DNA of 64,000 bases from Octopus vulgaris (Eukaryota), in NCBI GenBank assembly GCA_951406725.2, contig OX597839.1:14818001-14882000 (forward strand), written 5' to 3'. Below, piece after piece: positions 980-58,945 of the stretch (within the stretch, counting starts at the first letter, position 1; every line of letters begins with the position of its first letter). Made by a program: the position numbers and the translations under genes. The notes beneath the pieces were generated by a model. That model ran no database searches, had not been told where the DNA came from, and saw only the letters and a program-made list of their open reading frames with translations.

Positions 980-2020
980 GAAGGTTGTTCAAATTGTATT
1001 TGTTGCTAGAGGAACACATTCTGTATGCAGGCAAATAATGGGCTCCAAACAATCAGCATAATCATTGAGTTCTTGATGGAGAGATGCAGACTGTCCAACA
1101 TCTGCAATGCTATAGATTGAGTAGAGATGATGCTATTGACAAAAACAAAGTGCACACACAAAGTTTACAGAATGTGGCACCAACACTGAATAAGAACCAT
1201 GCAATCGGAGACCAACAGGCAAAAATCACCTGCTAGTGGAAGATTTGATTCATGCTTACTGACAAGTCAAAAATCTATGAGTTTGCTGCACTTCTGGACA
1301 GTGGATATAATGCATTACAAAAGATGGAAAACTTTGGGTATTGCAAAGTGTGTTCCTCCATAATTAACACCTGACTTGAAGGAGAGAAAGATGGAAGTCT
1401 AAAATCCTTTAGAAACATTTGAAGCTATTGAAGATGCATTTTATTGGAAAATGAAAGCTCTGTCTACAGAATGTCACACTCCTATTCCAAAGTTTAAGAA
1501 ATTAGAGAGCTAGTGATCAGCACAGAAAGTCATGACTGTTTAGGGGATAACAAGGACATCATTCTCCTTGGTTTCCTGGAAAATGGCTGTGCTGTGAACA
1601 GCAAGCGATATACTGAGATAAGCAAAAAGTTTAGAGAAGCCATTAAGAGAAAGAGGCTGAAAACAATTCAAATTCATTATAACAATGTGTGATAATACAT
1701 ATCTTTAGAAACAGATCAGGTGATTTGTAAATTAGGCTGGTTAGTGGTCCCCTATCTACTGTAGTCTGGATCTGGTGCCCTCCAACGCAGTCATCAGGGA
1801 TATTAAATTTGATGACACAGATGAAGTGAAAGTGGCTGTGATGATATGGCCACAAAAGTGCTTACATGAATTTTTTCAAGAAGTATTCAAGAGTTGCATT
1901 CAATGATTGCACAAATGCATCACTTGTGATGGAAACTGTAGAGTAGTATCTTTCGTATAAAGTTACTTTACCAACATTTGTAATTTGCATGACCAATGTG
2001 AGTTGCATTATACCCACCTT
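980..2020 (+). mobile_element. Decayed mariner transposon (transposase pseudogene)
   Basis: Broken-frame translation gives IIEFL, SAQKVMTV..DNKDIILLGFLENGCAVNSKRYTEISKKFREAIKRKR, KLGWLVVPY..SLDLVPSN (YSPDLAPSD-like) and IKFDDTDEVKVAV..HKCITCDGN. Many stops and frameshifts; TIRs not clearly resolved. Confidence 0.8.
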
Positions 2021-2363
2021 TGCTTTACTTTCATTTCAACCATAGCGTGTGTATGTATGTATATACATACAATAACACACAGGTGTTCTTCTGTTTGTAT
2101 AATAGATTGGCTTCAGATTGATGGGGATAAGTTTGTGATGATAATAAAAATTTTTTTAATTATTGGAATGGAAATAAAAATGGTTGTGTTTATGTGTATC
2201 ATCATCATCATCATCATTTAGCGTCCGCTTTCCATGCTAGCATGGGTTGGACGGGTCAACTGGGGTCTGTGAAGCTGGAAGGCTTCGTCAGGCCCAGTCA
2301 GATCTGGCAGTGTTTCTACGGCTGGATGCCCTTCCTAACGCCAACCACTCCGCGAGTGTAGTG

Positions 2364-2730
2364 GGTGTTTTTTACGTGCCACCTGCACAGGTGCCAGACA
2401 GAGCTGGCGAATGGCCACGAACGGATGGTGCTTTTACGTGTCACCGGCACGGGGCCAGGCGATGCTGGCAACGGACACGAACGGATGGTGCTTTTACGTG
2501 CCACCGACACGGGGCCAGACAGAGCTGGCAAACGGCCACGAACGGACGGTACTTTTACGTGTCACCGGCACGGGGCCAGGCGAGGCTGGCAACGAACACG
2601 AACGGATGGTGCTTTTACGTGCCACCGACACGGGGGCCAGGCAGAGCTGGCAGACGGCCACGAGCGAATGGTGCTTTTACGTATCACCGGCAAGGGTGCC
2701 AGACGAGGCTGACAGCGGACACGAACGGAT
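2364..2730 (-). repeat. Six ~60-63 bp tandem units in the RTE 3' UTR, alternating A/B types (~121-bp higher-order repeat)
   Basis: Units start at 2364, 2427, 2487, 2548, 2608 and 2670. Each reads approximately GGTGCTTTTACGTGYCACCG-CACGGGGCCAG..CTGGC..CACGAACGGAT on the + strand. Confidence 0.95.
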
Positions 2731-2779
2731 GGGTCACTTAACCCCTGCTTTCTGATATATGATTTGATTTTGATTGTTC

Positions 2780-3951
2780 TCACTGGTCTTGCCGGGTCTT
2801 CTCACGCACCGCATACTTCCATAGGTCTCGGTCTCTGGTCATTTCCTTGGTGAGACCTAGAGTTCGAAGGTCATGCTTCACCACCTCGACCCAGGTTTTC
2901 CTGGGTCTACCTCTTCCACAGGTCCCCTCAACTGCCAGGGTGTGGCACTTTTATCTTCATCCATTCTCACCACATGACCATACCAGCGCAATCGTCTCTC
3001 TTGCATACAACATCTGATGCCTATTAGGTCCAACTTTTCTCTCAAGGTACTTACACTCTGTCGATTATGAACACTGACATTACACATCCAACGGAGCATA
3101 CTAGCTTCATTTCTCGCGAGCTTACGCATGTCCTCAGCAGTCACGGCCCATGTTTCACTGCCATGTAGCATGGCTGTTCGTACACATGCATCATACAGTC
3201 TGCCTTTTACTCTGAGCGAGAGGCCTTTAGTCACCAACAGAGGTAAGAGCTCCCTAAACTTTGCCCAGGCTATTCTTACTCTAGCCGTTACACTTTCAGC
3301 ACACCCACCCCCACTACTGACTTGGTCACCAAGATAACGGAAGCTATCAACTACTTCTAGTTTTTCCCCCTGGAAAGTGACGGAAGTTGTTTTCTGCAGA
3401 TTTTCAGAGGTTAATGCTCCCGAGCATCTGCCACATACAAAAACCATCTTCCTAGTTAGCCTTCCTATGACATTGCTGCACCTCTTATGTGTCCATAGCT
3501 TACACTTGGCGCATCTTATAGAGTTTCTACCTACACCTTTTCTACAGATCGAGCAGGGCCATCTACCTGAAGGCGTTTGTGATTTGTCTACCTTCCTACT
3601 TATTACGACTTTGGTTTTAGCTAGGTTGACTCTAAGGCCCTTCGATTCTAAACCATGCTTCCACACCTGAAACTTCTTCTCCAGTTCTGATAATGACTCA
3701 GCAATTAGAGCAAGGTCATCAGCATAGAGGAGCTCCCAGGGGCATCTTGTCTTGAATTCCTCCGTTATTGCCTGGAGGACTATGATAAATAGGAGGAGGC
3801 TGAGGACTGAGCCTTGGTGGACCCCTACCTCCACCCGGAATTCTTCACTGTACTCATTGCCAACCCTCACCTTACTAGCAGCGTCCCTGTACATGGCTTG
3901 CACAGCTCTCACTAACCATTCATCTATTCCTAGTTTCCTCATTGACCACCA
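2780..3951 (-). pseudogene. RTE reverse transcriptase fragment (about subdomains 3/4-7, PHD finger and C-terminus), frameshifted near 2953
   Basis: RT-like sequence starts at WWSMRKLG. After MDED the expected KCHTLAVEGTCGRGRPRKTW...KTRQDQ* continues in another frame to the stop at 2780-2782. The copy at ~38125 has about 10 extra nt at this point, indicating a small deletion here. Confidence 0.88.
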
Positions 3952-4641
3952 ATGGCGATGGTGGTTATCGAAGACAGGGGCATATAGAAACATAGAGAGA
4001 GGGACAGGGTTAGTTGGGGAGGATGGGGGGGGGGGGAAGAAATGGTCAAGGAACACATGGGCGGAAGCTGTGCGATGGGTTCTGACTAGCATAGTGGAAC
4101 AAGACGAAAGTGTCGATAATATTTATTATTGATAATTAAGATAGTCTTGGAGAGAAAAAGGTAAAATCTAAAATCTGAGTTCGTCAGGAAGTCTTAACTG
4201 GACCCCAAACTAGCAAGAGGATTCTGTTAATCGTGATAGCAAGAAAGTAGGTTTGAAAGTATCAGAGAAGTCAAATTTTAGGGGAGACGATGAGTGGCTA
4301 TGAAACGGGAACAAATAGGGAGACGAGACAAAACTAAACGAAAAACATTACATGAATGGTATGTTGAAAACTAAAAGAAAATATGAATAGAGGGTACTGA
4401 AGGAAAATATGAGAGAAAGATTTAAGGAAACTGAAAGAATAGTGATTATACGTGCAGAGGGTAGTAGAAAGCGAAGTTGAAAGAAGAAATCTTAACTTTT
4501 AGCCGTTCATGAGCTGTGCATTCGTAGTGGAGTTGAAAGCGAGTGGGCTATATTTATATAACAAAGTTGAGTTGTGGGGTATCGCACGAGTGGAATTATA
4601 TACGAAAGAAGGTTTGAAAATGCAATTTAAAAGATGTTTAT

Positions 4642-4686
4642 TTACTTAACCGGTTTCACTCTTTGGAAAAAGATTGTCAAAAGTAA
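4642..4686 (-). ncRNA. Mirror copy of the minimal hammerhead motif
   Basis: Exact reverse complement of 4691-4735 within the palindrome. Confidence 0.65.
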
Positions 4687-4690
4687 CATG

Positions 4691-4735
4691 TTACTTTTGA
4701 CAATCTTTTTCCAAAGAGTGAAACCGGTTAAGTAA
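4691..4735 (+). ncRNA. Minimal type-I hammerhead ribozyme motif, U3-A8 variant
   Basis: Stem I TTACTT (4691-96) pairs with AAGTAA (4730-35). Core TTGACAA (4697-4703), stem II CTTTT-tcca-AAGAG, GAAA (4720-23), palindromic ACCGGT stem III, GUU cleavage triplet, AATAAA at 4735-40. Confidence 0.65.
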
Positions 4736-4829
4736 ATAAACATCTTTTAAATTGCATTTTCAAACCTTCTTTCGTATACATATATTTATATATATATATA
4801 CACACACGTATATATGCATGCCTGGATGT

Positions 4830-5400
4830 AGAAATACTTGGGTTGGTGTCTAAAGACCCAATGGGAATGAGGCACCAGGTCTTTGTCAAGGCATCCTTCT
4901 AGGAGAAAGCTAATTCATATATAAAATCTGCTGCTCCACTGAATCAGACATCTTGCACTTTGCTTGTCACTAGGATTCTTGGTACTGCTAGTGAGAGTTA
5001 CTGTGGTGTTATGCAATCCACACTCAACTTAAGACATTTGCACGGGCATTGCTGATACATCTCTGAGCAATGAGTAGATGGACAATCACACAATATGAGT
5101 ATATAATACAAGCAAGAACCTTTTGATAAATTCAGTCCTACAAGAATGAAATACAATGCAGAACAAGACCATAAAATATAAAAGATTCACAGACAAGCAT
5201 ACATATTTCCATTATCAGCTGCCAAGTAGATATTATTATGGTTTTGACACAAGGGTATTTCCTTTCAGTCCAGTGGTGTAGCAGGAGCAAAACATTAGCA
5301 TATGTCTATCACATCAACATCTGATATTATAATAAAAACTAACTTCAACTCTTAAACATAAATCGTATCATGCCTATAGCTAACGAAGTAGAAAAATTAA
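4830..5400 (+). mobile_element. Possible very old RTE 5' UTR/endonuclease remnant
   Basis: 4841-4930 (GGTTGGTGTC..TGAGGCACC..TTTGTCAAGGCAT..CTAGG..ATATAAA) resembles 13107-13200, which lies upstream of the RTE at 13780. Confidence 0.35.
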
Positions 5401-6354
5401 AAAATACTAAAATGCTATGTATAAAACAACTATTTCCCAAAAGCAAGTTACTACCTCAAACAGTATAGAACTCTGAGGAGGTTTGAAATGAAATAACTCA
5501 TGAGATGAGGGAACATGTAAAATGAAAGTATTTTTTCTCTTGGTACAACAAATCCTAATGGTGACATATAACATGGAGCATGCATTGACAGCTAATTTTT
5601 ACTGTTATAGAGTCTCAGAATTGTTGGAGCTGAACTGATACATCCATGTTTTTGTAATAATCAGTTCTTTGTGGCAAGCAGCCTGTTTTCCATCAGAGCA
5701 ATGAACAGCAAAAGAACAAATGTTGTCTACCCAAGAGCCCTTTCTGAATAAAACACATTACTGTTTGAATTGCTTGCTTTGTATGCTGCATTAATTTAGA
5801 ATTACAAGAAAAAAAGCTTTACACATCATAGAAACCTGGAAAAATTCAACTTTAGATATATATGACAAAAATATGTGCTAATATAATTAGAACTTCATAA
5901 AAACCTGCCATATGTTAAGTCACTAAGCAGAAAAATAAAATAAATTGTTTCTACATATTCGTGTTTCTTCATTGAATAGATTAAAGAACAAACAAAATGT
6001 TTCATTGCTAAGTTCTTTCTTTTCAATCAACAAATTGTGGATATGTTTTTGAAAATTTGGAATGGAAATTAGCACCTCATCCCACTGTATAAATTTGAAT
6101 ATCATATAGATGCATCAGAGTATAATAATACTGTGATAAGACATTACATAGCTATGTATGAGTGTTGTGTTCAGGGAAGTGCTTAGCATGGATTGCCCTA
6201 TGCAATATTGAATGAATAAATGAATACAAAATTGTGGATAACACATAGTTTCTTATATTATTTGTAATAATACACTATATAACAGGCCACTGTTTATTAC
6301 AGCAATTATGCAAGAAATGTTCTGCTTTGTCATATATTTACAGACACTTTGTGG

Positions 6355-6520
6355 AAGAACCATTAACTTTTCAAGTCCCATGGTAATAACCAACTTTAAA
6401 GAGCTAGTTTATTTTCTGATTTTATAGACTTTTTCTGAAAGAACCATTAACTTCTCAAGTCCCATGGTAATATCTAATTTTAAAGAGCCAAATCATTTCT
6501 AATGATTTTATGGAAATTTT
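6355..6520. repeat. Diverged tandem duplication, ~84-bp unit x2
   Basis: AAGAACCATTAACTT(T/C)TCAAGTCCCATGGTAATA...TTTAAAGAGC occurs at ~6355 and ~6439. Confidence 0.9.
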
Positions 6521-7029
6521 AGTTTTTGTCTTTGATGAATTCCAGGCAAGTAATAGAAAACAGAAAATGTCAGTAATAGTCTAAGCATAAAACTTTTCTC
6601 AAGAAATAGATTCCAGCTACATTCTCTGATATTCAAATGGAATATTGCAGTTTTTACACTTAGCTGCTTAAGATTGTTTCATTACATTTAAAATATTACT
6701 TTGAGATTGGCTCATCATTGGATCACATATAAGATTTTTTAGTGATATTGCAGATGTTTATTCAGAAATTTTAGAAAAGAACATAGTGAATGAAATAGAC
6801 TTGTACAAAGACCAGGCTTCATTAATACAAAGTAATAAAACTTTTTACTTTTACACTCTTCCCATTATTTTCTCTAATTGTATTTGAGTAGAGTATCTAT
6901 TTACTGCTAAGTGAGCTGAGTATACAATGCCAGTAACTTATATACCATCTCTTATAAACTCAGGAATGATGAAAGATAAAATTCACTTCTCACAGGATTA
7001 GAACTAGATATAACTAAATACCAAAAAGC

Positions 7030-7910
7030 TGTTGACTGTCATAATGATATAGATTTTTTTTTCTTTTTTTTTTTGTTCCACTATTTCAGACACATTTACA
7101 TTTTGTGAAAGTTTTGATGGGAATTTTCTACCAATATTCCTTATGCTGATAACAGAAATATTTCCTACATTTATCCTAGGGCTGTTATGAGAAGTGTCGT
7201 TGTTGCTAAAACAATGTCATCTTAGTAAATAAGGTATTTTTATTGAGATCTACTACCAGTGATCAAGATTTCTTTTCAAGGTGTAGATATGTCTCTGATT
7301 CTGATGTGCCTTTTATGTGACCATCTTAGGATAATCCTTTCTGTGAAAAGCATTCTAGATAGTTTTGACAACATTACATCTCACAAGAATTTACAACTGC
7401 AGAAATATCTGGGCAGCTGCTACTGATATAGATATCTCACCCTGCTATGATACTACCAATATTTTCTATTACAAAGTGAAAGTTAGGAGGTATCCATATA
7501 TCTTTTTCGGACAAAGTATTTAGTAGCTATCCCCAATTCTTGAACAGCAAAAATGCATCCTCAGTGGGATTTGATATATCTGTTTCAGATTCAGTATACT
7601 TTTCCAGTCAATATTGTTAGTATCTTCTAGCTTGTAGAGTATGTACCCATGTTGCTTATATGTTTCTCCCTCAAGTTTATGTTTAAATACATTAGTCCAG
7701 TTACTTATGGTACACTTGGAGTACAATTTCAAAAGTTCTCCACCTACTTACACGATATCTCTACAGTTGAATACATGTGATGTACTAATTTTCCTGTTAC
7801 TGTTAACAGTTGCTAAATGGTATGATATGGTACTCAAAAGTCATTTAGACTGACTTTGTCTTTGTCTCCATTCCTCCATCTAACATAGATCCTGTCAGTA
7901 GTCTTGACGT
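7030..7910 (-). mobile_element. Decayed REL-endonuclease non-LTR retrotransposon fragment (R4/Dong-like), copy 1
   Basis: Broken-frame translation gives DRIYVR..G, KQHGY, FAVQE..IATKY, a zinc-knuckle-like ISSSCP region and EYW.KIPIKTFTKCK..EIV. This is the post-RT to REL region of R4-like ORFs. Confidence 0.7.
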
Positions 7911-7939
7911 TCATGTATGATTATGTGTATGTAGGTAAA

Positions 7940-9098
7940 TGTGTATATGTGAATTTTTTTAATTGTTTGAATTCTGGAATCCTACCTATAAAGAAATAGC
8001 TGGTTTGTAGTGAAGCTGCAATGCTTCATTACAGGAATTTAGAGAGTAGTGGTGAAGAGTTACATGTTGAACTTTGAGAAAAGTTTTGCATTATTTTCGT
8101 TCACTTAGACATTATTGGCAAAATGCATGTTAGCTGGGCATTTTCTTTGCCTAAAAATCCCAACCTTTCAAGTTTATAACATTTTCTAACATAGTGAAAT
8201 GCATCAATAATTTATGTACATGAATTGATAATCTGTATAGAGAAGTTGTAATCTTTGAAGTAGTAGTTCATAAATATTTACATTATGAACTGGTCGGAAA
8301 TATTTACATCTGCAGTGTAGCTGATCACCATAATTGGGCATAAGTTTTCTTTTCTGTACCAGTCTACTTCCAATGAATGTTTACATTCATTGGAAGTATT
8401 TTTTTAATATTTATTCTAGTGTAGTCATAGCTATGAATGGCATCATTATTAGCAACAATATCATGCTAAATAGAAAGGTAATACCTTAATGTTATTTTCG
8501 GGCTGCTGTGGATCACTGTATCATCTTCTATAGAAATGAGATATCAACATTTTTGGTTGCATCATAAGGTTTTTAGCAGTTAATTACCTTTTTTTTTGTT
8601 TGTTTACTAGGTGTTTTGTAGCTATTTTTTATTTTGGGTTTGTCAAAGGATAACTTTAGAATTACAAGTTGTAACCATGACAAGTCTGAGAGATGCTACA
8701 CTTCCTGTCAGTGTTAGTTCGCATTCTCAAATTTATGAGAAAACTACCCTTTCATAACCCTTTTTGTTTGCTGAGAATTTCTCATCTAGGACTTTGAGAT
8801 AGGCTACTTTAATAAAAGATTATTGGGAAGAGTCCACTCTCAATTTACATGCTGGCGTTTTCCTCACTTTTGTGAACTTGGTTGATAGTTTTGCAACAGA
8901 TGCTGTCAGTGATACCATATGACACTCAAAGGCTATCTGGATTGATCTTAAACCTCTCCCCACTTCTTATCATTTGAGATAGAACCTTTCAGTGTTACTG
9001 TTTCTGGGTAAAATTCCAATTGATGTGAAGATTTTAAAGGTTTTCATATCTATGAAAAAGATTCCTTCTATAAATATCAGTCAATGCTATATTTGTTG
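7940..9098 (-). mobile_element. Decayed REL-endonuclease non-LTR retrotransposon fragment (R4/Dong-like), copy 2, with C-terminus and 3' UTR
   Basis: Translation gives NTERFYL..GRGLRSIQIAFE, ISYTADVNIS..NIYELLLQRLQLLYTDYQF and LERLGF..KTFLKFNM*. Flanked by 29-bp imperfect direct repeats (7911-7939 and 9099-9127). Confidence 0.78.
8365..8398. repeat. Perfect 16-bp inverted repeat with 2-nt spacer
   Basis: TACTTCCAATGAATGT-TT-ACATTCATTGGAAGTA. Confidence 0.95.
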
Positions 9099-15360: not shown

Positions 15361-15502
15361 GCCCCGGTGGGGGTGGGGGAATAAATGTTAATATGTGTGT
15401 GTGTATAAAGTGCTTGGTGGTAAGGCTGTCAGTTACAGACAGTAATGTGCCTATTATTAATTGAAGCCTCATACATCTGTGTGTGTACACACACAAACAC
15501 AA

Positions 15503-15992
15503 ATGTGTAGGCATATACGTATACACAAATAGCTATGTGTAGGTATATATGCATACACAGATATGTGTATGTGTATACATGTATACACATACCTGTATAG
15601 GCATGTGCAGGTATACGTGCATACACTCACATGCATGTGCAGGTGTATGCGCATGCACACACACGGGCATGTGCAGGTGTATGCATGTGCACACATGCCA
15701 TCATATGCAGGTGTATGTGCATGCACGTGGGAATGTGCAGGTGTACGTGTGTGCATGCACATTCCCACGTGCATGCACATACACCTGCATATGATGGCAT
15801 GTGTGCACGTGCATACACCTGCACATGCCCGTGTGTGTGCATGCGCATACACCTGCACATGCATGTGAGTGTATGCACGTATACCTGCACATGCCTATAC
15901 AGGTATGTGTATACATGTATACACATACACATATCTGTGTATGCATATATACCTACACATAGCTATTTGTGTATACGTATATGCCTACACAT
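15503..15992. repeat. 490-bp near-perfect inverted duplication (237-bp arms, 16-bp spacer, one mismatch seen)
   Basis: Left arm ATGTGTAGGCATATACG...GGGAATGTGCA (15503-15739), spacer 15740-15755, right arm TGCACATTCCC...CGTATATGCCTACACAT (15756-15992). Confidence 0.95.
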
Positions 15993-16259
15993 AGGGAATT
16001 GCACTTATGCACATACATTAAGTGATAGGTGATATAAAACACTTAGTTCAATTAAAAAAAATTCTGTTTTCAGTATCCAATCACCACCTCTACCATCATC
16101 TCTCTCCCCCTCCCTCTCCTCTCTCTACCCTCTCATACCGCTTTCTCCCTGCTTTTCTTTAACCTCATCATCAGAACATCACCCCTCTGCTAAAATTATA
16201 TTTTTAACTCCTCCTCTACCTTCAGCTAACTTTTTTAACTACATAATAAATATTACAAT

Positions 16260-18802: not shown

Positions 18803-19186
18803 AGTAAAGATCATTTGCCAAAATTACATGGCAATCCTGGTTTAGGACGAATATTGCTGTAATATAGCCACAGGAGACATTGTCTCCAGCTGGCTATATG
18901 ACACCATCTGTGTTCTTATATTTTTGAACACAGGAATCTAGCACCCCCACTCAGCTCAAAACATTATCTGTTTCATGATTTTTGGGTTATTTCCCTTTGT
19001 CAGCACAGAATAATTGTTTGGTTTCTCGTTCGAAACATAGTTTTCAAAGTGACAACTATTCACTGATCTATTAGGGTACAGATCGTGTCATATAGCTAGT
19101 TGGAGATGATGTCTCCTGGGGTTAAATTACAGCAACATTCATCCTAAACCAGGACTGCCATGTTATGTGGGCAAATAATCTTTACT
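18803..19186. mobile_element. MITE with ~115-bp terminal inverted repeats
   Basis: AGTAAAGATCATTTGCC..ACATGGCAATCCTGGTTTAGGA..CTATATGACAC is mirrored by GTGTCATATAG..TCCTAAACCAGGACTGCCATGT..GGCAAATAATCTTTACT. Confidence 0.88.
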
Positions 19187-37728: not shown

Positions 37729-38703
37729 CTAGAGGTAGTTGATAGCTTCCGTTATCTAAGTGGCTAAGTCAGTAGCAGAGGTGGATTCTCCAAGAGTGTA
37801 TCTGTGAGAATAAGAATAGGCTGGGCAAAGTTCAGAGAGCTCCTACCTCTGTTGGCAACAAAGGTCCACTCCCTCAGAGTGAAAGGCAGACTGTATGATG
37901 CCTGAGTGCAAACAACTATGCTACACGATGTGAAACATGGGCTGTGACTGCCATGGACATGCATAGGCTTGTAAGAAATGAAGCTAGCCTGCTTCAGTGG
38001 ATGTGCAATGTCAGTGTGCATGTATAACAGAATGTAAGCATCTTGAGAGAAAAGTTGGGCATAAGGAGCATCAGATGTGGTGTGCAAGAGAAATGACTGT
38101 GCCAGTATGGTCATGTGATACATATGGATGAGGACAGCTGTGTAAAGAAGTGCTGATTTCTGTGGAGGGAAACCTGTGGAAGAGGTTGAACCAGGAAGGC
38201 ATGGGACATGGTGAAGCATGATCTTTGAACATTGGGCTTCACAGAGGAAATGACTAGCGATCAAGACCTTTGGTGATATGCCGTGCTTGAGAAGACCCAT
38301 CAAGTCAAGTGAAATCATAGTCATGGCCGATGCCGATGTCACATAACTAGCATCCTTACTGGTGGCACATACAAAGCACCTTTCAAGTGTTGGCCTCACA
38401 GAGGCAACAACAAACGACCAAGACCTTTGGCAATATACTGTGCTTGAGTAGAAGACCCATCAAGCCAAATGAAATTGTAGTCATGGCAGATACTGGTGTC
38501 GCATAACTGGTATTCATACCAGTGACATATAAAAACACCCATTACACTCTAAGAATGGTTGCTGTTAGGTAGGGCATCCAGCCATAGAAACCATGCCAAA
38601 TCAGACTGGAATCTGGTGCAGTCCCTCAGCTTAACAACTCTGGTCAAACTATCCATCCATACCAGCATGGACAATGGACACTAAATAATATTGATGATGA
38701 TGA
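37729..38703 (+). mobile_element. Older 5'-truncated copy of the same RTE family as 2198-3951
   Basis: LEVVDSFRYL, RIRIGWAKFRELLPLLATK, SLRVKGRLYDA and TCGRG; (GAT)n tail at ~38693-38703; ~155-bp tandem duplication at ~38260-38545. Confidence 0.93.
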
Positions 38704-48075: not shown

Positions 48076-48977
48076 ATAGTGTATTTACTGGAAATGAGTA
48101 GATAGAAAACCCTTGGAGATGATCAGCAGGAGGAGCAATTGTGAACATGAGCCATTGAGACTAGTTTCTCACTTGTACTTTGGAATGCTATAAAGAGTAG
48201 CCAAATTTCCTTAATATTGAAGAGTTTTTTTTAAAAAAAGGGAAGAAATATATAGTCCTAGATACAATGTCTGAAAAAAAAAATGAAATAACTGCTGGAA
48301 AGTATTGAATTATTGATGGGTCTAATCAATCAGGGATGACAGGGAGCTAAACAACATCACGGTGTCTTGAGGAGGGAGCTATAAAGGATGTTTGTAACAC
48401 TTGCTATAGGAAGGTAAATGCATTAGCTGTTTTTCATGGGTTCATGATTTTTATTGATTAGTTCAAAATGGTTGACATCTCACATTTGCTTATTTCTTTT
48501 CTACTCCTTTCAGAAATTTTTTTTTTTTAAAATTAATATCGCCAGATAGATGACCTAATTTCAATTAATAAACAAACCCTTTTAACTTGAAGTAATTATT
48601 TCCTTATCAGATACCATTGTCTTTAAAGAAACAAAAGACACTGCTAAAATGAGATGGTTATGGTTAAAATTATCACATATCTGATCAATCAGGCTAAGCA
48701 ACATTTTAATACCAATCTGCCTGAGTCTGCATTGGTTCTATGATCAGTAACTTGTCCTAAAGTGTCCATACTAAAATTAAAACTGCCCATTATCATTTTA
48801 AGCTAGGACCTTTTCAGTTTAGTTCTAGACACAGAGTTAATGAAAAATGTTGGGTGTTTTTGTTATACTCCTAAATTGTTGTTTGTTTACAAAACTAATT
48901 GGAACAAATAGGCAAAAATATTTTTTTTAAATCTTAGGGCAAGTGAAACAAAGTAAGGACAATAGGGATTAATAGTT

Positions 48978-58385: not shown

Positions 58386-58780
58386 ACAGGTGTGCCTGTG
58401 TAGTTGATAAATTTTCTTCCCAACCACATGGTTTGGGGCTCAGTCCTGCTGCTTGGTAGCCTGGGCAAGTGTCTACTACTATAGCCCTGGGATGGCCAAA
58501 GTCTTGTGAGTGGATTTGGTAGACAGAAACTGAGAGAAGCCCATCATATGTATGTGTGTGCTTTTGTCTTTTATCTTACATTGCATGGTTGTTGTAAATG
58601 AATGTCATTTATTTCCAATATTCTATGATAATATGTCTGGCCATAGGGTAATATTATCTTGCTTGGAAACAGGCAAGAATTGGCAAGAGGAAGGGCATCT
58701 GGCTATAGAAAATCTGTCTCAATAAACTCTGAACATGCAAGCATGGAAAAGTGGATGTTGAAATGATGATGATGATGATG
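58386..58780 (+). mobile_element. Full-length SINE family A with RTE-derived 3' tail
   Basis: tRNA-like head, GGGCAAGTGTCTACTACTATAGCC..CTTGTGAGTGGATTTGGTAGAC, and tail CATGCAAGCATGGAAAAGTGGATGTTGAAATGATGATGATG. Confidence 0.85.
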
Positions 58781-58945
58781 ACAGGCTTCTACACAATTTT
58801 TGTCACCCAAATTCACTCACAAGGTACTGCTTTGTCTCAAGCTTTTGTAAAAGACATTTGTCCAGTGTGTCATGCAGTAGAACTGAACCCTAAACCATGT
58901 GGTTGCAAAGCAAGCTTCTCAATCACGCATCTATGACTGCACCTT
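58781..58945 (-). mobile_element. SINE family A head, tail-to-tail with the previous copy
   Basis: ACAGGCTTCTACACA..CAAATTCACTCACAAGG..GAACCCTAAACCATGTGGTTGCAAAGCAAGCTTC. Confidence 0.75.

Follow-up and report, generated by a model that had tools for sequence, protein, structure and literature searches.

Minimal hammerhead ribozymes (min-HHRs) were defined by Cervera and de la Pena (2014) in the pseudo-LTRs (pLTRs) of Penelope-like elements (PLEs; PMC4209133). In the portions of that paper used here, the U3-A8 core variant is reported for ~1,300 Schistosoma mansoni Penelope hammerhead motifs found by a dedicated descriptor, opposite-strand pairs are noted, and cleavage is low and restricted to dimers and to molecules whose helix III was extended. 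Its alignment, consulted in the same portions, has two U3-A8 rows: Sm3 (UUGAUAAA) and Sm4 (UUGAAAAA), the latter (Sm4*) with a GUU triplet and a link to the Cercyon PLE. Perreault et al. (2011; PMC3088659, cited in part) described U3-A8 covariation and a U10.1-U11.1 mismatch as natural variants, each compatible with some activity.

For PLE insertions, the sections of Arkhipova et al. (2013) drawn on here report inverted pLTRs, one of which carries a 31-bp tail, together with solo pLTRs and duplications of 8-10 bp; palindromic junctions joining ends head to head were read there as self-priming (PMC3846280). Craig et al. (2021) report the same architecture and list octopus Naiads with a (TA)n preference (PMC8557442, in part). 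Frangieh et al. (2024) place the tail between two internal reverse-transcription start sites, with an AT-rich target and a hammerhead that is protein-assisted and dispensable for insertion in vitro (PMC11167929, in part). Non-LTR retrozymes are non-coding, carry a type I hammerhead, and are thought to derive from PLE pLTRs (PMC7229834; bioRxiv 10.64898/2026.07.22.740005). The U3-A8 core, opposite-strand dual motifs, and palindromic head-to-head junctions are thus already published features. In Octopus vulgaris, 31 Penelope-like families have been active recently (PMC13282606); the word "ribozyme" is absent from that 2026 repeat annotation, and we found no paper on octopus hammerheads, which the Lunse et al. 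(2017) survey of PLE hammerhead variants may cover.

We analyzed a 64-kb stretch of O. vulgaris DNA (the window), which is AT-rich and microsatellite-rich. At 4599-4778 it contains two arms—left, 4599-4688 on the minus strand, and right, 4689-4778 on the plus strand—that sequence comparison shows to be exact reverse complements of 90+90 nt with a spacer of 0. The perfect 180-bp palindrome of the initial annotation is therefore real, as is the hammerhead motif observed in it, and it is the sole perfect palindrome with arms >15 nt in the window. The right arm is a 90-nt repeat-end copy comprising the hammerhead motif, AATAAA, and ~40 nt leading to a short 3' end without a tail; the left arm is an identical 90-nt copy. 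We consider it probable that the palindrome represents two identical head-to-head copies of an abundant repeat—likely 5'-truncated 3' ends (solo pLTRs) of a Penelope-like retroelement—laid down by one insertion event in a TA tract. PLE parentage is what we infer from the architecture.

The predicted type I minimal-hammerhead motif occupies 4691-4735 on the plus strand, as judged by descriptor, by folding, and by by-eye comparison with a 56-row alignment in the supplement of PMC4209133 (in part). Its mirror lies at 4642-4686 on the minus strand, with a predicted cut between 4648 and 4647. Stem I joins 4691-4696 to 4730-4735 through 6/6 Watson-Crick pairs, and helix I closes the motif, giving the type I topology. 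The core TTGACAA (UUGACAA) at 4697-4703 has U3-A8 as its position 3/8 pair; GAAA follows at 4720-4723, then the palindromic ACCGGT at 4723-4728 and a GUU triplet with a predicted cut after 4729. The palindrome axis lies 2 nt upstream of stem I. This layout agrees with the initial annotation in stem I, core, GAAA, ACCGGT, and axis. The AATAAA that the annotation placed after the motif is also present, at 4735-4740 (+; mirror 4637-4642 on the minus strand), but it shares the last stem I base and does not lie beyond the stem.

Chance does not account for this arrangement. Our descriptor admitted five core variants and required a palindromic stem III, a stem II of at least 4 pairs, and a stem I of at least 4 or at least 6 pairs. 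At the looser stem I setting it returned just these two motifs from the window; at the stricter one it gave 1 match in 150 block-shuffled 64-kb windows (0.007 per window). A viral control set held 120 loci, of ~260 estimated, that matched the two core boxes plus ACCGGT: stem I reached at least 6 pairs in 0/120, at least 5 pairs in 0/120, and at least 4 pairs together with a stem II of at least 4 in 0/120. From the low shuffled-window rate and these controls we therefore conclude that the motif is not a chance match. A family-like pattern matched viral contigs five times, all without stem I, and a U3·G8 motif at 48217 in the window was rejected, its stem I being just 3 bp and at chance level. 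Other long inverted repeats in the window lie at 15478-16017 (262-nt arms, 95% alike, 16-nt spacer, CA/TA-rich sequence), 18803-19186 (118 nt at 84%), and 58397-58929 (89 nt at 73%); the same descriptor detected no hammerhead motif in these three.

Standard searches pass over the motif. A canonical CUGANGA search misses it, as had been anticipated, and Rfam does too: it reported no hammerhead family at E<=10 on 3500-6000 or on one arm alone, and nothing at gathering score across the whole window. Rfam matches to miRNA and roX families were rejected because they reflect the palindrome.

The core boxes (UUGACAA, GAAA) and the NUH triplet (GUU) are those of a min-HHR with a compensatory U3-A8 pair, and the palindromic positions 15-16 allow a dimeric helix III, with an ACCGGU self-duplex of -8.3 kcal/mol by folding. 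Helix II (4704-4719) has at its base U4704·U4719, or C4705·U4719 if U4704 is the usual bulge, followed by 5 pairs; the consensus G10.1-C11.1 closing pair after the bulged base is absent. Because the base of helix II is U·U and not a closed pair, we file the motif as one that may work like a min-HHR, short of a proven member. The monomer hammerhead fold, at -2.7 kcal/mol, is not the minimum-energy fold (45-mer z +0.36), and dimer modelling gave -12 to -14 kcal/mol for the double hammerhead vs. -20.7 kcal/mol for the best alternative dimer.

Set beside S. mansoni min-HHRs, the octopus motif has the same type I topology, short helix I, palindromic helix III, and U3-A8 core, and it likewise occurs mostly as solo high-copy motifs and in opposite-strand pairs. 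It differs from the min-HHRs of PMC4209133 in that its helix II closes U·U, whereas the Fig. S3 rows examined in that paper close with a Watson-Crick pair after the bulge; cephalopods are absent from those rows. The two variants that Perreault et al. described separately are combined here in one minimal PLE-type motif, as far as the cited part of PMC3088659 goes.

A second instance of the core variant comes from an unrelated source. A search of metagenome contigs with a pattern fixing stem I, core, and ACCGGT but not helix II gave one match, contig L006. At 2002-2042 (+) of this contig, the nucleotide sequence by itself predicts a U3-A8 minimal hammerhead with a 4-bp stem I, a bulged A, a helix II of 5 unbroken pairs with G-C as its closing pair, ACCGGU, and GUC. 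L006 and the window have nothing alike outside the motif. The motif lies ~30 nt downstream of TATAAAA, and upstream of it are both a two-finger C2H2 ORF and a Pro/Ser-rich ORF; the 2.3-kb contig has no PLE ORF, and Rfam (E<=10) found no hammerhead family on it. L006 would thus lend independent support to the motif type.

To place the arms in their repeat family, we used contigs from four public runs (X1, X4, X5, and X11) aligned to 3800-5100 at 80% likeness. X1, X4, and X5 are DNA-like, whereas X11 is RNA by guess alone. The family data comprise the 40 listed of 159 variant rows, unphased, and 903 loose ends fall beyond those listed. The right flank at 4818-5100 is represented by single contigs with 0-1 differences at depths of 51 (X1), 116 (X4), and 5.7 (X5), and summed contig depth across the arm runs from 1e3 to 1e6 in the same three runs. 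At 4603, depth exceeds the single-copy flank by ~4,900× (X1), 7,800× (X4), and 16,000× (X5), figures that give an order of magnitude, not a copy number. To that order of magnitude, the arm sequence is present in thousands of copies, and the earlier expectation of many further copies holds. X11 covers the arms but not 4812-4899 and so has no bearing on expression of this locus.

Sequence variation among the copies bears on both the origin of the arms and the state of the core. Both arms carry C4603/G4774, where T makes up 97% (X1), 87% (X4), and 53% (X5) of depth; sharing this letter against a majority T points to one template for the two arms. In each of the 40 listed of 159 variant rows, the other letter reaches at least ~70% of depth in some run, and 0 of these 40 fall within 4642-4735; being unphased, they give no view of stem covariation. 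That no such row lies in the motif weakly suggests that the C3-G8 form is not dominant among these contigs. A helix II deletion private to this copy was considered and rejected: 10 X4 contigs with a different loop II keep the same 5' side, a weak observation (median 9 letters).

The outer limits of the repeat are marked in the contigs. At 4597, 28 X5 contigs diverge from the reference into (TA)n, so that the repeat ends naturally at the boundary of the left arm. Depth is greatest at the outer ends and drops inward, the hammerhead half reaching ~35-55% of the distal half. At the inner side, copies in X4, X5, and X11 extend upstream of the axis into common non-palindromic sequence (loose ends 4688-4689). 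Raw-data contigs also contain further head-to-head joints, at 4628>4749 (exact mirror, X5), 4642>4746 (X4), and 4618>4738 (X1), all of which exclude the hammerhead.

These inner limits separate two versions of a Penelope-type origin. The 90-nt and 128-nt units could instead be full products, in which reverse transcription from the first internal site runs off the 5' end of an uncleaved transcript starting just upstream of the hammerhead, yielding a non-autonomous, hammerhead-led mini-element. Both arms start 2 nt before stem I and not at the cut site, as an uncleaved template would require; PLE transcripts begin in the pLTR (PMC6765202, in part), and in vitro it is mainly uncleaved RNA that serves as substrate (PMC11167929, in part). 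The copies that continue upstream of the axis, the reduced depth of the hammerhead half, and the inverted joints at 4618, 4628, and 4642 all fit variable truncation instead, and we regard full-length products as unlikely. The 5'-truncated ends of our preferred reading accommodate these observations.

High copy number extends beyond one arm only. A ~38-nt stretch at 4561-4598 (minus strand) adjoins the left arm and is likely the optional Penelope tail, that is, a second, longer 3' end. Depth at 4582 is 14-46% of that at 4603 and 20- to 300-fold over the 4504-4547 bin, and high depth begins at ~4559-4562 in the three DNA-like runs. A one-sided high-copy extension of 38 nt fits the 30-40 nt optional tail of EN+ Penelope insertions, as described in the consulted parts of PMC3846280, PMC8557442, and PMC11167929. 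This one-sidedness also bears on whether the arms could be terminal inverted repeats of a TA-targeting MITE or foldback DNA transposon reduced to its ends, with an incidental hammerhead match. Depth highest at the outer ends and falling inward, ends that adjoin (TA)n, and joints readable as internal deletions would all suit such an element; symmetric, fixed terminal inverted repeats would not be extended outside one arm only. Further against an incidental match, the motif has a chance rate of ~0.007 per window and carries AATAAA, and in the unrelated contig L006 this core variant comes with an intact helix II, which its search pattern did not require. We judge a DNA-transposon origin very unlikely.

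The whole unit is bracketed by a 12-bp direct repeat, TATATTTATATA, at 4549-4560 (+) and 4781-4792 (+), the right copy starting a (TA)n(CA)n tract that reaches ~4817. The pair is a probable target-site duplication, and only probable because the 12-mer has 3 more occurrences elsewhere in the window and chance in a TA-rich site is not negligible. Neither the tail nor this repeat nor the other head-to-head joints figured in the initial annotation. Together with the flanks they argue against a single copy having been turned into a palindrome by a fold-back artefact during library preparation or assembly. Arms that are 100% identical without a spacer are what such an artefact would leave, and no contig among those listed (X1, X4, X5, and X11) spans the axis or joins an arm to a flank. 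The mirror nonetheless ends exactly at the natural end of the element, and the two flanks differ; single-copy contigs of X1, X4, and X5 match the right flank at 4818-5100 with 0-1 differences; the direct repeat encloses the unit; and similar joints occur in other raw-data contigs. An artefact is accordingly a slender prospect.

Two inverted solo Penelope ends thus remain our preferred explanation, and the head-to-head inverted junction matches that described for EN+ PLE insertions (PMC3846280, in part). Like EN+ Penelope inverted and solo pLTR insertions, the locus combines a head-to-head junction, a tail of 30-40 nt at one end, a short target duplication (probable here), and an AT-rich target. 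Unlike them, the whole insert consists of two ends (~220 nt) without an ORF, and its 12-bp duplication lies in low-complexity DNA. The architecture upholds the earlier assignment to a Penelope-type minimal hammerhead in inverted pLTR-like ends, the ORF link aside. The insert may belong to any PLE-type clade (Neptune, Poseidon, or other).

A possible route to the insert can be outlined from these parts. The GIY-YIG nuclease of the element would cut an AT-rich target, and reverse transcription would start at one of two internal sites, the distal site giving the long end with its 38-nt tail on one side and the proximal site the short, untailed end on the other. Synthesis would halt 2 nt past the hammerhead, and the strand would likely fold back and prime on itself; repair would then leave the 12-bp target duplication. 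As both arms reach upstream of the cut site, the template would have been uncleaved. The hammerhead would be the usual pLTR passenger of the parent element and, if active, would be slow, act as a dimer through ACCGGU, and perhaps be protein-assisted. The upstream sequence of X4 terminates in TAACAT plus 3 nt; this hexamer is the complement of ATGTTA at 4688-4693 and would provide a ready fold-back site at the axis. Only in X4 (2 contigs) is the resulting hairpin free of mismatches; X5 shows one mismatch, and the X11 variant lacks the hairpin, and for this reason fold-back priming at the axis is put forward as a hypothesis. The target duplication, the fold-back priming, and any catalysis are steps that we infer.

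No coding sequence of a PLE accompanies the ends, as expected for solo ends. Pfam gave a match of any kind for 0/23 short ORFs in 1190-8486 (24 of 48 ORFs tested, the remaining one being a mariner piece), and a six-frame motif scan revealed no GIY-YIG or PLE reverse-transcriptase catalytic motif. The mariner-type transposase fragment lies at 1498-1689 (+; Pfam Transposase_1, E=2e-5). The octopus Naiads (Naiad_Ovul and Naiad_Obim) share the (TA)n preference of this repeat; we rejected them as the parent, with 0 exact matches to 4 arm and tail strings in the consensus file of PMC8557442 (wrapped text, one orientation). A non-LTR retrozyme was also rejected: retrozymes are head-to-tail tandem units, each with a hammerhead, whereas copies here are head-to-head, and no head-to-tail joint with the motif occurs among the joints listed.

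Neither of the repeats immediately to the left is the parent of the hammerhead. A neighboring 5'-truncated RTE-like LINE occupies 2200-3951 on the minus strand (Pfam RVT_1, E=7e-14). Its ORF at 2881-3951 (-) encodes an RTE-like reverse transcriptase whose best named match, with 83% identity across 71% of the query, is an O. vulgaris protein; this LINE breaks off at 3951, beyond which other copies extend. A PHD finger follows the reverse transcriptase, the 3' part contains approximately six tandem units of 60 nt (2370-2732), and the element ends in (ATG)n; a second copy, ~80% alike and in opposite orientation, lies at 37729-38609. A medium-copy repeat at 3952-4548, separate from the palindrome, has depth far below that of the arms and a head-to-tail joint of its own: contigs in X4, X5, and X11 run from 4547/4549 back to 3952/3971 via 27-29 nt, in three variants in X11. 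Its unit measures ~625 nt; the minus strand carries a TATA-like box where the ends join, and an inner joint lies at 4401>4229. The descriptor found no hammerhead in it. Its candidacy as the start of a PLE ORF was rejected, Pfam giving no match in three frames translated through stops. An older dispersed repeat lies in the right flank at 4873-5042, with many contigs at ~80-85% identity.

What the hammerhead could do at this locus is constrained by its mirror. A transcript of either strand contains one sense motif and its perfect antisense, and folding gives -135.8 kcal/mol for the hairpin vs. -2.7 kcal/mol for the ribozyme. With the motifs on opposite strands, no transcript has two sense copies, and therefore no dimer can form in cis. 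Because a read-through transcript is predicted to fold into the -135.8 kcal/mol hairpin, cleavage at this locus is unlikely; the motif is likely silent, and read-through RNA would be a 90-bp hairpin. The initial annotation had offered two outcomes, self-cleaving RNA or masking dsRNA. Folding favors the second, and the first is weakened in that one transcript never has two sense copies.

That annotation also took the U3-A8 pair as a sign of selected function. The compensatory 3-8 pair in an intact core stands, but the selection it points to would have acted on the parent element and not at this locus, and the variant was already published (PMC4209133 and PMC3088659, both in part). A locus kept by selection as a strand-dependent switch, giving either self-cleaving RNA or masking dsRNA, could explain the perfect arms as well as the intact core. 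A recent single-event origin explains the arm identity equally, the hairpin overwhelms the ribozyme fold on both strands, sense copies are never co-transcribed, and the family that carries the motif as a passenger numbers thousands of copies. We consider such a switch extremely improbable. Under our preferred reading, the locus is an ordinary transposon remnant.

In its present state the locus is of little consequence. It contributes one octopus case to the Penelope ends with minimal hammerheads, a class already published, and it shows that Rfam and CUGANGA searches pass such ends over. A broader pattern is conceivable, although we hold it rather doubtful. An octopus Penelope family might exist in thousands of copies with a hammerhead weakened three ways (U3-A8, U10.1·U11.1, and GUU) and with a native mini-hairpin 5' of the ribozyme that programs fold-back priming, so that perfect hairpins masking the ribozyme would be scattered through the genome, their ends marking the template 5' end and both reverse-transcription start sites. 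If this were true, the hairpin ends would be a natural record of how PLEs become inverted, a step still unsolved, and the hairpins would supply dsRNA for editing or silencing. The short copies would then offer a cheap test of inverted-junction formation and of template cutting before insertion.
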